The notes under the pieces were generated by a model. The model made no database searches. It was given only the letters and a program-made list of their open reading frames with translations, and was not told the origin of the DNA. Positions 1 to 17,420 of a stretch of DNA of 17,688 bases are shown here, one piece after another. The translations under genes and the position numbers were made by a program. The stretch's first letter is position 1. Each line of letters begins with the position of its first letter. The stretch is from contig JBGCEP010000055.1 of NCBI GenBank assembly GCA_045106415.1, forward strand, positions 1 to 17,688, written 5' to 3'. This stretch comes from Oligoflexales bacterium (GTDB lineage Bacteria > Bdellovibrionota_B > Oligoflexia > Oligoflexales > Bog-1112).

Positions 1-222
1 AACTGTCTCAAAAATTTTGGACATGTACGAACTGTTCTTCGCGGTATGATAGAGATATTAACGCTGATTTAAATTTAAAGATGGCCGCGAGCTGCACGGT
101 GTCAGTTTGTGGAGAAGAAAGCTCAGGATTTTCTCATATGAGAAAAATTGAACTATCTTCGTTGAAGCAAAAGTTTGATTTTAAATCTGCATAGGTAGAT
201 TTAAGTAAATTCACAACAGCGG
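1..222 (+). mobile_element. Right end of an IS200/IS605/IS607-superfamily element (IS607-like GG boundary)
   Basis: tnpB 3' end plus a subterminal hairpin, terminating in ...ACAGCGG. A GG end is typical of IS607-type serine-recombinase elements. tnpA and the left end are outside the window, so the family assignment is inferred. Confidence 0.65.
3..194 (+). CDS. tnpB: TnpB RNA-guided endonuclease, C-terminal fragment (5' part outside window)
   Basis: Frame +3 reads LSQKFWTCTNCSSRYDRDINADLNLKMAASCTVSVCGEESSG...SSLKQKFDFKSA* (TAG 192-194). W-x-C-x-x-C (second half of the Zn ribbon) followed by DRDxNA (RuvC-III) and a 'TVSxCGE...KQ' tail is the characteristic TnpB C-terminus. Confidence 0.92.
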   Translation: MSQKFWTCTNCSSRYDRDINADLNLKMAASCTVSVCGEESSGFSHMRKIELSSLKQKFDFKSA

Positions 223-238
223 TATGCTTTAATGCTTG
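85..238 (+). ncRNA. Putative TnpB omegaRNA (scaffold ~85-222, guide ~223-238)
   Basis: Nested stems overlap the tnpB 3' end: hairpin 85-99 with loop AGCTG; TTTGT 106-110 / GCAAA 167-171; 114-125 / 149-160 (10 of 12 pairs); palindrome TTTTCTCATATGAGAAAA 129-146; 181-190 / 195-204 (10 bp, one G-U). Loop GCTG (91-94) is complementary to CAGC (217-220), giving a pseudoknot just before GG 221-222. Confidence 0.75.
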
Positions 239-255
239 CAAAAAGTCATAAAAAC

Positions 256-1446
256 TTAAAAGTCGACGTTGTTTTTTTCTGTCGATATTTTTAGAGATAA
301 AATAATACAGCTCAAAGTTGCGGCCATGACTGATGCGTCAAAATATGTGTTTTGTGTCAACCCGTGTAAGAGATTTACCCCAATGAGGGAGCCGATAAGT
401 TTACGAAATGGTGGAAGCGGGAGAATGCGGTATGAACTTTGTACGATGATCCAACTACAAAATAAGATGAAACTAAATCCTAGAAAACCAATCTCAGATA
501 AGGTCTCAAGATATAATTGATGAGCGTTGTAGGTGATGTATGCTGGTGAATCATAAAAAATTTCAGCTGAATATTCAGGACGTAGTTTTGCGATAGCGTG
601 ATAACCGACGCCAGACCAAGGTCTGCTTAAGAAAATATTCCAATGAACTTCCCACAGTCGGAATCGAGGAGATGACCATGAAAAATGAAAAAATCGATCA
701 AGTAAACCTAAGAATTTAAGAATAAAAAAGCTAATTATAAGTAAAAATGATCCGTAGATAATTTTTTTATTTGAAAATGCAGCAAATAATAGAAAGCAAA
801 ATGCTATTAGAAGAGCAGATCTTCCTCCCGTAAGAATAAGAATTATGCCAGTACAAATAATGCTGTGAATTTTTAGAGTTTGGTGTGTTTTCTCACCTGG
901 AATGAAGAGTAGAAAAGTAAGCCACGTGAGACAAACAGATGCTAGACTCAAAGGGTGGCCATGAAATAATCGAATGCGATAATAGCCATCGTTTATTAGG
1001 TTCCCAGATCCTAAACCTTGAGGAAGCCGATAATCCCACCCGGTGAAATGCTGAAACAAAGCTATAAGAAGTATGACACTTAAGGATAAAGCACTGCTTA
1101 TCAAAAGCTTATGTGATGATAACGGTGGTGATTTATGATGAAAGGGGAGGCGCGGGATCGAACATATTAAAAAGCCAAAAATAAGCAGGGATGAGGGGAT
1201 ATGAGATCTTATCATGTCTTGAAAAATGACACCTTCAGTGGGTGATGTGAGCTGATTAAACGTGGATAAGATAGGAAAGATTCCCCAAATACCTATACAG
1301 CTTAAACCGATAGGCATCCAATTTTTTCCCTTTTCACGAGGTTGTGAAAGAAGAAAAATTGTTGTGCATAGGTATAAAGCAAAAGTCTGCCCAGCAATAC
1401 CTAGAAATAAACTCCAAGGAATGATCAAAAAGAAGATATTCATCAT
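256..1446 (-). CDS. O-antigen ligase family (Wzy_C/WaaL-like) membrane protein
   Basis: Multi-TM protein with ILTGGRSALL, R-x-x-LW...IFLSRPWSGVGY and NAHQLYLETLSEIGFLG (AHN-x-YL-like) motifs. May be a WaaL ligase or an O-oligosaccharyltransferase. Confidence 0.85.
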   Translation of the reverse strand: MMNIFFLIIPWSLFLGIAGQTFALYLCTTIFLLSQPREKGKNWMPIGLSCIGIWGIFPILSTFNQLTSPTEGVIFQDMIRSHIPSSLLIFGFLICSIPRLPFHHKSPPLSSHKLLISSALSLSVILLIALFQHFTGWDYRLPQGLGSGNLINDGYYRIRLFHGHPLSLASVCLTWLTFLLFIPGEKTHQTLKIHSIICTGIILILTGGRSALLIAFCFLLFAAFSNKKIIYGSFLLIISFFILKFLGLLDRFFHFSWSSPRFRLWEVHWNIFLSRPWSGVGYHAIAKLRPEYSAEIFYDSPAYITYNAHQLYLETLSEIGFLGFSFILFCSWIIVQSSYRILPLPPFRKLIGSLIGVNLLHGLTQNTYFDASVMAATLSCIILSLKISTEKNNVDF

Positions 1447-10251: not shown

Positions 10252-11361
10252 TCAAATGCGATTAGGATAATCGTTGAGAAGTTCTTGAGCTTCTTCTGTG
10301 GAGAGATTTTTTAATAGAAGTTCATGAACCTTTTTGTATGAAGATGCATGCTCCCTAGTTGTTAGGTATAATTGATAGTTTATTTTTATAACTGCCTGCA
10401 AATATTTTTGTGCAAGTCTGTAGCTTTGGTCTAAAAGATCCAATTTTTGTGCGGTAGAGAAATTGAAGAGTAATAAATTTTTTTGAATAATTGTTTCGAT
10501 GTTTTTAAACATATTGTCATGAGAGTTTATTCTATGTCCAATTGTTAAGAAATTATTTTTGTATGTTAAGTAACAAGAAGGACTTAATTGATATTCATCA
10601 AAATTCTCTTGGGCTATGAGAGTAGGTATTTTTATATTTACTAGACTTTGTAACCAAATAGATTTCTCAAACCCATCTGTTCTAAGTGAATAATGCCATT
10701 GAGATGTCGTATGATTTTGTAAGATTTTTCCATAGATTGGCTTTTTGTCGATGAGCCAAGACGGCCCACTGTAATATATTTCACTTAAATAAGGACAAAA
10801 TATGCCTTGTTTTTTCATTTGCTTCCTGGCACGAAAAAGTTGAACCGTAGTGAATCCTTCTATAATGTTGCGTTCATGAGTTTTAAAAAAAAGGTCAGTA
10901 AGTTTTTCATGTTCAGTGTTTTTTGGACTTTCTTGAATTCCAAAGTCATCAGGGAAATTTTGAAGATCTTGAATATGCCTTTCTATTTTTTCTAATTTTT
11001 TTATATAGGCTGCTTTAGGAGAGTATAAGTTTTCAAAATACTGAATCATTGAATAATGTGAAGGTAAGGGAAATTTTTTGGTTAAATTTTGAAAAATATG
11101 AACAGGATACAGTGGGAGGTAACCACTTGCTTCATCATGTTTTTTCCAATAGGCATGTTGTATTGATTGCTGATAATGCTTACTGTTGAAAACAGACTGT
11201 ACTGTTGTTTTGCTCTCAGAATTTAAGGAGCGTATAAGGAGAAGGTTTTGATGTTCAAGTTTTTCTAGGATTTCATTGGGTAAACTAGAAAAAGAAGTTG
11301 TATGTCCAGAGGCTGAAGCTAAAAAAATGATGAAGAAAAATGAGCGTGTAATTTGATTCAT
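10252..11361 (-). CDS. Exported hypothetical protein with N-terminal F-box-like motif
   Basis: Long ORF. Probable start is ATG 11361 (CAGGA upstream), giving signal peptide MNQITRSFFFIIFLASASG, then FSSLPNEILEKL..NLLLIRSLN. The ORF-track start at 11424 is an alternative. Confidence 0.65.
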   Translation of the reverse strand: MNQITRSFFFIIFLASASGHTTSFSSLPNEILEKLEHQNLLLIRSLNSESKTTVQSVFNSKHYQQSIQHAYWKKHDEASGYLPLYPVHIFQNLTKKFPLPSHYSMIQYFENLYSPKAAYIKKLEKIERHIQDLQNFPDDFGIQESPKNTEHEKLTDLFFKTHERNIIEGFTTVQLFRARKQMKKQGIFCPYLSEIYYSGPSWLIDKKPIYGKILQNHTTSQWHYSLRTDGFEKSIWLQSLVNIKIPTLIAQENFDEYQLSPSCYLTYKNNFLTIGHRINSHDNMFKNIETIIQKNLLLFNFSTAQKLDLLDQSYRLAQKYLQAVIKINYQLYLTTREHASSYKKVHELLLKNLSTEEAQELLNDYPNRI

Positions 11362-11491
11362 TGTCGGTCCTGAATTTTTAAAACTGTAGCGGAAGATATT
11401 AAAAACTGAGGATAAATTCATCATTTATTTTTATAAAAGATTATTTGTTTGAATTTTTCTTTTAACTATCTAATATTAGAAGTGTCTGTAA

Positions 11492-11576: not shown

Positions 11577-12302
11577 TTATTTCGACAAGTGTTTTTTTAG
11601 GCCGTCTAGGCCGTTTATGTGTTCTCCATTAATGAAAATTTGTGGAGCAGTGTCTTTGTGTGTGAGGTTGCGTAGAGATTTGTAAGAGATTCCTGAACCC
11701 ATAAGAATTTCTTCATAATTAAAACCTTTGTTTGTGAGAATATTTTTTGCTTCAATACAAAATTGACATCCTGGCTTAGAAATAATTGTCACTTCGGCCG
11801 GAAGTTTTGCTTTTGGATTGATATGATTGAGCATGGTGTCAGCGTCAGACACTTCAAAAGGGTCCCCTGGTTTATCAGGTTCAATAAATGCTTTTGTTAT
11901 TTTTTTATTTTCAACAAGCATGGAATAGCGCCATGAGCGTTTTCCAAAACCTAGGTCACTTTTATCGACAAGCATGCCTAAACCATCACTAAACTCTCCA
12001 TTGCCATCTGGAATTAAAGTGATTTGATTAATTTTTTGATTTTCTCCCCATGCTTCCATCACAAATCCATCATTTACAGATATGCAGATAACATCATCAA
12101 CACCTTCTTTTTTAAAGGTTCTATAGCACTCCTCATACCTTGGGAGGTGTGTTGATGAGCATGTTGGAGTAAAAGCTCCAGGTAGAGAAAATACAATGAT
12201 TTTCTTATCCTTAAAAAGATCATCTGTTGTCATGTTCTTCCAGTCCCCATCTTTTCGTGTGCGAAAAGTGACATTGGGGACAGTTTTTCCATCAAGAGTC
12301 AT
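11577..12302 (-). CDS. pgdx: Hybrid peroxiredoxin (Prx5-type)-glutaredoxin, glutathione-dependent peroxidase
   Basis: FSLPGAFTPTCSSTHLP, SVNDGFVM..W, DLGFGKRSWRYSMLV and DPFEVSDADTML, then a Grx domain KPGCQFC...TAPQIFINGEHI. ATG 12302 has GGAG 6 nt upstream (alternative start 12314). Confidence 0.93.
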   Translation of the reverse strand: MTLDGKTVPNVTFRTRKDGDWKNMTTDDLFKDKKIIVFSLPGAFTPTCSSTHLPRYEECYRTFKKEGVDDVICISVNDGFVMEAWGENQKINQITLIPDGNGEFSDGLGMLVDKSDLGFGKRSWRYSMLVENKKITKAFIEPDKPGDPFEVSDADTMLNHINPKAKLPAEVTIISKPGCQFCIEAKNILTNKGFNYEEILMGSGISYKSLRNLTHKDTAPQIFINGEHINGLDGLKKHLSK

Positions 12303-12325
12303 ATTTTTCTCCATATCTCAGTAAT

Positions 12326-12340
12326 TTTAAATGATTATAT
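12326..12340 (-). promoter_or_regulatory. TATAAT -10 element embedded in a PerR/Fur-like box upstream of the Prx-Grx gene
   Basis: Minus strand ATATAATCATTTAAA matches 11 of 14 defined positions of TTATAATnATTATAA and contains TATAAT (12334-12339). The AT-rich background lowers significance. Confidence 0.35.
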
Positions 12341-12560
12341 CTTATATGTGAAGGAGGCGACAGTTGAGCTGAATAAATTTTTTGGAATAATAGATGTTAA
12401 ATTTCAATGAAAATTGATGGGTTTTAGAATTCAAAAGAAAGCGGTTTGAAGTGTGAACACATGTTAATTAATAATTAATATTGCGCTGCAGAGAGTGCTG
12501 ATTTATAGTGTTTAATATTAATTAATATTTGTGTAAAGCTGTCTTTTTTCTATAACTTGA

Positions 12561-16181: not shown

Positions 16182-17420
16182 TTAGTTTCCGTAACAAGAA
16201 ATATGAACGCAAGTCCCGTTAATTCTGTTGAAATCAGAGATCATATATTTTTCACCGTCTGAACTTAAAATGAAATTTCCAGTATCACTTTTATGATAAG
16301 AGCCCACAGGAATCATCCATCCTTGATAAAAAAGGTAACCTTCTTCCATAAGTACTTTGATTTCTTCGTGGAGAACGGGAGGTCTTTCATCTTTTGAAGG
16401 GTCATAAGCACGAGGTTGGCTCACGACGCGAAAATGATCTTTTCGCTGAATGGCGTCTTGCAACCACTCCATATTGCGCGAAAATGTCCAGTCTGGGTCT
16501 TTGAGAATATTCGCATTTTTTAGTCTCTGAAGCTCAGGGCTCCATGTTTCTGCTATGTGTCCAAGAATGGTTGTTTGAATATTGTTTTCTGAACGGCTTC
16601 TTGTAATGAAGTTTTGTAAAGAATTAATTTTATAGTCAGTGGATTCGGTGCGGCTTCTGCGTATAAAGTTTTGAGAGGTTCCTGTGTTGTTGAATAAATC
16701 AGATGCAGATTTTTGACGAAAAGAATTTTCAGCTAAATAAGCATTACTAAGTTCTTCATCTGTGTCGATACGAATAACTTTTTGTATATCTGAGTCTTGT
16801 GCTGTGAGAATAATATCTTGCGAGGTTATTTTTTCGATCACTTCAAAATTTTGGATGCTTCGAGGGCTTTCGAGGTTTTGTGTTTTTTCTAAACTTTCGA
16901 CTTTTGTTGCAGCAGATATTTCGTCTTCTTTTAAGGGCTCATTCTTTATATTTATTTTTTGAGATATCTCATCTTTTTTTATGTTTTTTTTCTCTTTAAT
17001 GTTTTGGCGTTGATCATCTGATCTTGTGTAACCGTCATATATGGTGCCTTGGCTGCGAGGTGTCGATTCATTTCGAGTTGTTTTATTGGTCGAGATGTTT
17101 ACTTTGTTCATGAGGTTGAGGGAGGCGTCTTTTGGGATGTAGGCCCAGAAAAGGCTTGAAGAGTAATATTCTCCCGAACTTCTATCTAGTGAATTGACAA
17201 GCCGTATGGGAACTTTCGTATGTGTTTCTAAAGATATGTCGTGTTTAATATTTTCCTCGGAATGAAAGCTTATTCCGGAAATAGTTACGGTTGTTTGTGA
17301 GACTTCTTGTGAAGATTGTGAGTGAGTATGAAATTCCTCACGGGAAGAAGAAATGTCTTCACAGCTAAGCGATAATAAGGTCACAATTGATGACATAAAA
17401 AAAAATAAACGGCTAGACAT
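16182..17420 (-). CDS. Putative lipoprotein with low-complexity linker and C-terminal toxin-like domain
   Basis: RBS GAGGA; hydrophobic leader ending LSLS-C20 (non-canonical lipobox); S/T/E/K-rich middle; compact C-terminal domain TTILG...W...N..WLQDAIQRKD.F.VVS...EIKVL..EGY. Confidence 0.7.
   Translation of the reverse strand: MSSRLFFFMSSIVTLLSLSCEDISSSREEFHTHSQSSQEVSQTTVTISGISFHSEENIKHDISLETHTKVPIRLVNSLDRSSGEYYSSSLFWAYIPKDASLNLMNKVNISTNKTTRNESTPRSQGTIYDGYTRSDDQRQNIKEKKNIKKDEISQKINIKNEPLKEDEISAATKVESLEKTQNLESPRSIQNFEVIEKITSQDIILTAQDSDIQKVIRIDTDEELSNAYLAENSFRQKSASDLFNNTGTSQNFIRRSRTESTDYKINSLQNFITRSRSENNIQTTILGHIAETWSPELQRLKNANILKDPDWTFSRNMEWLQDAIQRKDHFRVVSQPRAYDPSKDERPPVLHEEIKVLMEEGYLFYQGWMIPVGSYHKSDTGNFILSSDGEKYMISDFNRINGTCVHISCYGN

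Follow-up and report, generated by a model that had tools for sequence, protein, structure and literature searches.

A probable truncated IS607-family tnpB relic with a reRNA-coding right end at a contig start of an Oligoflexales bacterium

The first 222 nucleotides of the window (the whole 17,688-nt stretch that was analysed, which begins with the start of contig C55) are read, with a probability of close to nine in ten, as the right end of an IS607-family insertion sequence, in a copy that is dead, truncated at its 5' side and most likely inert. The assembly holds 2.95 Mb in 89 contigs and is 93.8% complete. The RNA scaffold of the copy is near-intact, but its nuclease gene is truncated and interrupted by a stop codon, and the copies of the element in this genome are decaying neutrally; a relic that is most likely inert is therefore the preferred reading. 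The original prediction had put forward a candidate new TnpB/omegaRNA pair. A usable pair it is not, as tnpB is truncated, carries an in-frame TAA and has no intact counterpart among the assembled copies. Nor is the kind new, because the element is of the IS607 family, for which a reRNA architecture has been described before; the relic is a new case of the kind described in PMC10711439 and PMC11061315, real but ordinary. A suitable annotation is an IS607-family tnpB pseudogene fragment with a reRNA-coding right end. There is no new editor to pursue, and the relic matters very little for the window itself.

The features of the relic are listed in Table 1. Five stems, a GCTG loop (91-94) pairing with CAGC (217-220) and a TTTGT/GCAAA stem had been claimed from the sequence, and every one of these pairings is present at those positions. 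In the window 33 of the 34 scaffold pairs are formed, C88.A96 being the sole break. The fold z-scores are -3.6 and -4.0, and in both tests none of 200 shuffles folds as well. The minimum free energy fold of the window alone pairs SL1 otherwise than the comparative structure does, and the latter was preferred.

Table 1. Coordinates of the tnpB remnant, the reRNA scaffold and the right end in the window
Feature	Position	Strand	Basis and remarks
tnpB C-terminal remnant	3..194	+	63 codons plus TAG stop (192-194); frame open at 5' end; translation LSQKFWTCTNCSSRYDRDINADLN...
Second CxxC of TnpB zinc finger	24-35	+	CTNC in translation
RuvC-III DRD motif of TnpB	48-56	+	Translation
SL1 of reRNA	85-89/95-99 (85..99)	+	Loop AGCUG; C88.A96 mismatch (C-G in the subfamily consensus)
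Pseudoknot 5' strand, GCUG	91..94	+	Within SL1 loop; covariation
RAGATH-18-like core as a whole	106..171	+	P2, GGAG / GUUGAA internal loop, P3, P4; inside TnpB reading frame
P2, basal stem of core	UUUGU 106-110 / GCAAA 167-171	+	Comparative structure
P3 of core	114-117/157-160	+	Comparative structure
P4, distal hairpin of core	129-135/140-146	+	Comparative structure
P5, 3' hairpin	180-188/197-205 (180..205)	+	tnpB stop codon in loop
Pseudoknot 3' strand, CAGC	217..220	+	Pairs with 91-94; covariation
GG right-end crossover dinucleotide of IS607-type element	221..222	+	Copy alignment; PMC10711439
Would-be guide (flanking DNA)	223..238	+	16 nt shown; one occurrence in genome

The reading frame at window 3-194 matches positions 40-60 of the 60 positions of PF07282 (Cas12f1-like TNB domain) at E 1.5e-4, below the cut-off because the domain is cut, and matches NCBIfam IS607_TnpB at E 7.4e-6. 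Compared with the full-length TnpB P0005 (401 aa), it is 41% identical to residues 336-398 (E 8e-17). Together with the CxxC and DRD motifs, these matches bear out the Zn-ribbon and RuvC-III motifs that had been reported for the window.

Window 1-141 recurs without a difference as the last 141 nt of contig C26, and no other contig shares these nucleotides at 100%. The end of C26 is most likely the upstream DNA of the window, a link made up of this identical overlap of two contig ends and one 277-nt Logan contig, with no spanning assembly. Read from the end of C26 into the window, the frame is IAVEDLHVKGMM...FPSTKLCSECLARHGI, a stop, and LSQKFWTCTNC...DRDINA (IAVEDL...CSEC...GI, stop, LSQKFWTCTNC). 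It keeps the RuvC-II Glu (IAVEDL), both CxxC pairs (CSEC, CTNC) and the RuvC-III Asp (DRD), and contains one in-frame TAA, which window bases 1-2 complete if C26 lies upstream. PF07282 matches C26:140317-140517 with 65.3 bits and one TAA inside. Similarity to every other copy starts abruptly at C26:140241, corresponding to TnpB codon ~265, and the DNA before that point is unrelated. If C26 precedes the window, ~423 bp of the IS607-family copy are left, and this copy would be dead: subject to the C26-C55 junction, it holds only TnpB codons ~265-377, without RuvC-I, the N-terminal WED/REC/HTH half, tnpA or a left end. A ~55-nt repeat unrelated to the insertion sequence lies just upstream of the relic (C26:140157-140212) and shows 83-90% identity with sequences in C61, C64 and C16.

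These data bear directly on the idea of a new TnpB/omegaRNA pair that is still live, with a full tnpB just upstream of the contig start. The nearly complete pairing of the scaffold fits that idea, as do the last 113 TnpB codons, open except for the one TAA, and the position of the window at a contig end, where the upstream DNA is not formally assembled. However, C26, the sole 100% match to the first 141 nt, has TnpB homology from codon ~265 only, with unrelated DNA before it; the TAA lies in frame, and no assembled copy is intact. The original prediction had itself named upstream DNA without the RuvC-I/II and HTH regions as the result that would count against it, and C26, which lacks RuvC-I and the HTH/N-terminal half and has a stop codon in frame, gives that result. 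The upstream search that it proposed, for a full tnpB, tnpA and the left end, gave only the tnpB piece; neither tnpA nor a left end was present in the C26 DNA. A live pair at this site is highly improbable.

The first 400 nt of the window match 27 places in the genome, and a covariance model of the scaffold (R1, described below) finds 32 copies. Three subfamilies can be told apart: A, to which the window copy belongs, and B and C, which are 70-77% identical to A. The right end of each is CAGCGG or a close variant of it. Searches of the assembled copies by TNB domain, by OrfB_IS605 and by tblastn found no intact tnpB. All 18 TNB-domain matches are located in open frames of at most 211 aa, and stops occur inside the match in 11 of them; frames with OrfB_IS605 matches do not exceed 175 aa, while full-length relatives are mostly ~390-400 aa long. 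The tblastn search with a 401-aa relative returned pieces only, with differing internal deletions in C6, C17, C34 and C85.

The consensus of 12 near-complete subfamily-A copies forms 34 of 34 pairs. Within these copies substitutions were counted at 66/810 paired versus 95/939 unpaired sites (Fisher p 0.16), and 47 of the 63 changed pairs are broken. Since paired and unpaired sites are hit alike and changed pairs are mostly broken, the copies are decaying neutrally. Some 30 relics, which fall into three subfamilies and decay neutrally, with no intact nuclease gene in the assembly, record an earlier burst of the element and its extinction. The copy at C3:1043-1213 shows a clean internal deletion of the equivalent of window positions ~121-168, which removes most of the RAGATH-like core; the same deletion junction occurs in one contig of DNA run X1 (joint 118-169).

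An intact tnpB could exist in an unassembled copy, because the assembly is 93.8% complete and several copies of subfamily B are cut off by contig ends while their frames are still open (175 aa in C19; both ends of C48). On this basis the reRNA of the window might still be made and used in trans by the TnpB of such a copy, for example of subfamily B, guiding cleavage or binding at the flank. The well-kept scaffold of the window copy, the open-framed subfamily-B copies at the ends of C19 and C48 and the incompleteness of the assembly are all in keeping with use in trans. Against it, no intact tnpB was found in the assembly, the subfamily-B copy in C34 is internally deleted, the paired sites of the copies show no excess conservation, the guide is without a second match in the genome, and P4 and P5 are not alike in subfamilies A and B. 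Use of this reRNA in trans is accordingly judged improbable. The broader proposal, that the thirty-odd dead right ends are not all inert and that an unassembled subfamily-B nuclease loads relic reRNAs in trans, each aimed at its own flank, is very unlikely; if true, it would provide distributed fixed guides for homing, genome rearrangement or, with a dead nuclease, repression. The ends of the 12.4-kb contig C48 are themselves formed by inverted, near-identical subfamily-B right ends (1-245 and 12167-12411) that run off both sides. A composite arrangement could explain this, and so could an assembly break in a young repeat of high identity.

Downstream of the relic, a convergent Wzy_C (O-antigen-ligase-like) gene occupies window 256-1446 on the minus strand, and an opp-type ABC transporter operon lies beyond it. 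For two further minus-strand ORFs of the window, 10255-11424 (390 aa) and 16185-17420 (412 aa), Pfam gave no match at E <= 1e-5. The stop codon of the Wzy_C gene is 33 nt from the relic, and this closeness, together with the strong structure of the RNA, would suit a takeover by the host, in which the relic might serve as a terminator, say, or as a structured 3' element that separates the Wzy_C gene from the DNA upstream. But the copies show no signature of selection, and some 30 similar relics are found in unrelated contexts. In addition, DNA like window 1-240 was found in none of 40 related genomes (15 of the same family and 25 of the same order), so that the site is not conserved. Co-option by the host is thus an extremely unlikely account, and an inert relic remains the preferred one.

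IS200/IS605 elements, which carry a Y1 transposase, are the textbook context of TnpB. The present element is assigned to the IS607 type instead, this copy by its kinship with sibling copies. The truncated copy has no serine-recombinase tnpA of its own; in the siblings in C17 (with four stops) and C34, decayed serine-recombinase genes are located directly upstream of the tnpB remnants, and the piece in C34 is recognised by NF033518 (IS607 family transposase; E 9.4e-19). Among 84 foreign tnpB loci, the longest upstream ORF was taken for 64; of those dropped, 19 had under 600 nt of upstream DNA and one had no ORF of 90 aa. IS607 transposases, intact in these relatives, account for 24 of the 64 ORFs; none of the 64 matches a Y1 transposase model. 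Remnants of the left end were found in at least 16 places of the genome (the C17:29057 region and 15 others). They begin (G/A/T)G-GCTGACAGC, have the consensus GGGCTGACAGCAGCAC... and are preceded by unrelated DNA. A motif ACAGC(A)G is common to the left and right ends and is possibly a binding site of the recombinase.

An IS200/IS605-type (Y1) element, with a right end set by the cleavage site and not by a GG crossover, would agree with some of the protein comparisons. The closest solved protein to the full-length relatives is ISDra2 TnpB (PDB 8bf8, 8exa, 8h1j; E 4.2e-67), followed by 8iaz, named only 'Transposase' (E 8.1e-53), and two of the relatives, P0003 and P0005, score slightly higher on NCBIfam IS200_TnpB than on IS607_TnpB. 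There is also one Y1 fragment in the genome. However, serine-recombinase remnants adjoin tnpB in C17 and C34, the upstream transposases of the foreign relatives are of IS607 type in 24 cases and of Y1 type in none of the 64, the ends are GG, and the Y1 fragment adjoins no copy that was found. A Y1-type origin is hence barely credible. The Y1 fragment itself, at C77:364-653, contains an internal TAA, is the only Y1 match of the genome and lies away from all copies found.

The right end was located by comparison of the copies. Similarity among the 32 genome copies runs through ...ACAGCG and then fades, with homology stopping at 221-223; GG is found at 221-222 in 19 of the 32, and all sequence beyond 223 differs between copies. 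Among the foreign right ends, 47 of 64 end in GG. T223 is common to 24 of the 32 genome copies, with T at this place in only 22 of 61 foreign relatives, and may reflect a target preference (GG-T) of the recombinase of this element. Where contigs of two public DNA runs align to the window, they depart from it at 220-224. A 277-nt contig among them is identical to window 1-221 and adds 56 nt upstream; neither an empty-site allele nor a contig spanning the whole stretch was found among the contigs of these two runs. The boundary at 222, as predicted, stands within a base or two, and its location at 221-223 supports the predicted start at 223 of a guide taken from flanking DNA.

As described in PMC10711439, IS607 elements recombine at GG and have a fixed nucleotide just beyond the right end, which forms part of the reRNA scaffold. 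By that rule the scaffold would end with G222 as its fixed right-flanking nucleotide. Guides described in the literature have 16-20 nt. For the guide of the window, no second match was found in the genome at lengths of 12-16 nt. On the TAM side, purines are only weakly preferred before GG in the left flanks of the 16 left-end remnants.

By analogy with published relatives, a live element of this kind would be moved by a serine-recombinase TnpA through crossover at the GG dinucleotide. A reRNA (omegaRNA) transcribed across the 3' end of tnpB would load TnpB, its scaffold consisting of SL1, the RAGATH-18-like core and the 3' hairpin and being locked by the pseudoknot of the SL1 loop with the last four bases before GG. 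The flanking DNA after the scaffold would serve as the guide and direct the cutting of the empty site.

The structure was examined on foreign TnpB loci, of which a single-protein query of genome contigs gave 4 and a metagenome scan with an alignment gave 80. Covariance model R1 was made from an alignment of 14 copies of this genome and 2 foreign loci and contains the five stems, the pseudoknot being left out. It matches 64 of the 84 foreign loci (E <= 0.01), always on the plus (gene) strand and at the 3' end of the gene. On the resulting alignment of 64 foreign sequences, standard pairs fill 93.1% of the cells, a share that drops to 38-45% once the 3' partners are shifted by 1-3 columns, and changes on both sides are seen in 29 of 31 pairs; the counts for nested pairs are favoured by the fit of the alignment to R1, a bias that the pseudoknot count alone escapes. 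The pseudoknot alone pairs in 92.8% of the cells (9-70% when slid), with 30 double-change cells compared to 9.2 +/- 2.3 in shuffles, and none of 500 shuffles reaches the observed value. The covariation is not drawn from close kin, because the 40 related genomes gave no DNA match.

The foreign pseudoknots are GUUC/GAAC in 24 of the 64 sequences, GUUA/UAAC in 7, GCUC/GAGC and GUUU/GAAC in 5 each, and GUUG/CAAC and GCUA/UAGC in 3 each, besides others; GCUG/CAGC, the pseudoknot of the window, occurs in 0 of the 64. The commonest foreign basal stem is CCUGU/GCAGG (30/64). The GTTC/GAAC and CCTG/CAGG pairs that the original prediction named for related elements are therefore the commonest ones in the relatives, and its view of the window pairs as compensatory variants holds, GCUG/CAGC and UUUG/CAAA being covarying variants of GUUC/GAAC and CCUG/CAGG. 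Its general picture, a TnpB 3' end overlapped by a guide-RNA scaffold that a pseudoknot closes at the right end, is likewise supported; the stems and the pseudoknot covary in the 64 foreign TnpB 3' ends. A sequence-only profile made from the 64 foreign sequences alone recovers window 79-222 in a whole-genome search at E 2.1e-15, part of this signal being protein-coding conservation.

The RNA core resembles RAGATH-18 and by the rule of Rfam is not a member. A search of the window with Rfam gave no RAGATH-18 match at E <= 10. In 8 of 10 loci scanned, RAGATH-18 (RF03064) falls on the RNA core with 25-32 bits, which is below the gathering score of 44.9; the best score, 32.0 bits, belongs to a subfamily-B copy of this genome (L011), and seven foreign loci score 25.2-29.3 bits. 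The alignment to RAGATH-18 covers the basal stem and the stem after it, together with the GGAG / GAUGAA internal loop. Matches of Prevotella-2, Hatchet and other Rfam families on the window are at chance level, all far below gathering, and were rejected. The core is dual-coding, both at window 106-171 and in foreign loci (e.g. L055:2306-2373): the conserved tail motif (A/V)CGEE(G/S)SG of TnpB is encoded by its conserved strand as well. A large clade of IS607-associated TnpBs (64 of the 84 sampled loci) thus has a RAGATH-18-like reRNA core inside the tnpB frame, and such in-frame reRNAs are missed by standard annotation because the Rfam model scores the clade below threshold.

ISXfa1 of Xylella fastidiosa, as described in PMC10711439, shares with the present element a serine-recombinase TnpA partner (here as decayed genes in two sibling copies) and a GG crossover at both ends. 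The reRNA of ISXfa1 described there has ~150 nt and sits at the right end, the apical loop of its SL1 forms a pseudoknot with the bases before the guide, and its scaffold includes a fixed right-flanking nucleotide, with the guide starting one base later. The putative reRNA of the present element agrees in these points, and its fixed nucleotide and guide would be G222 and the DNA from 223. Without this pseudoknot of the SL1 loop with the guide flank, ISXfa1 is not active (PMC10711439). The pseudoknot has 4 bp here (GCUG/CAGC), whereas five nucleotides are cited for ISXfa1 in that paper. Unlike ISXfa1, the window copy is a truncated relic, and its likeness to ISXfa1 is drawn from the published description (PMC10711439).

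ISDra2 is similar in that, as outlined in PMC10711439, its omegaRNA overlaps the 3' end of tnpB and has a pseudoknot beside the guide. It differs in having a Y1 transposase and no GG crossover at its right end. Its scaffold ends at the element boundary, whereas the scaffold of IS607 elements includes the right-flanking base, as stated in PMC10711439.

A published parallel in the RNA core is provided by ISFba1 and other IS607 TnpBs, which are reported in PMC11061315 to be guided by RAGATH-18-derived reRNAs with a 5' flanking hairpin whose loop forms a pseudoknot with the 3' flank. As in the ISFba1 type of that report, P2, the GGAG...GAUGAA loop and P3 align to the base of RAGATH-18 (in the relatives and a sibling copy), the loop of the 5' hairpin pairs with the 3' flank, and TnpB is ~390-400 aa long in the relatives. 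In the ISFba1 type, as presented in PMC11061315, the reRNA lies apart from the coding sequence, whereas the core described here is located inside the tnpB frame, as in the omegaRNAs of IS200/IS605 elements.
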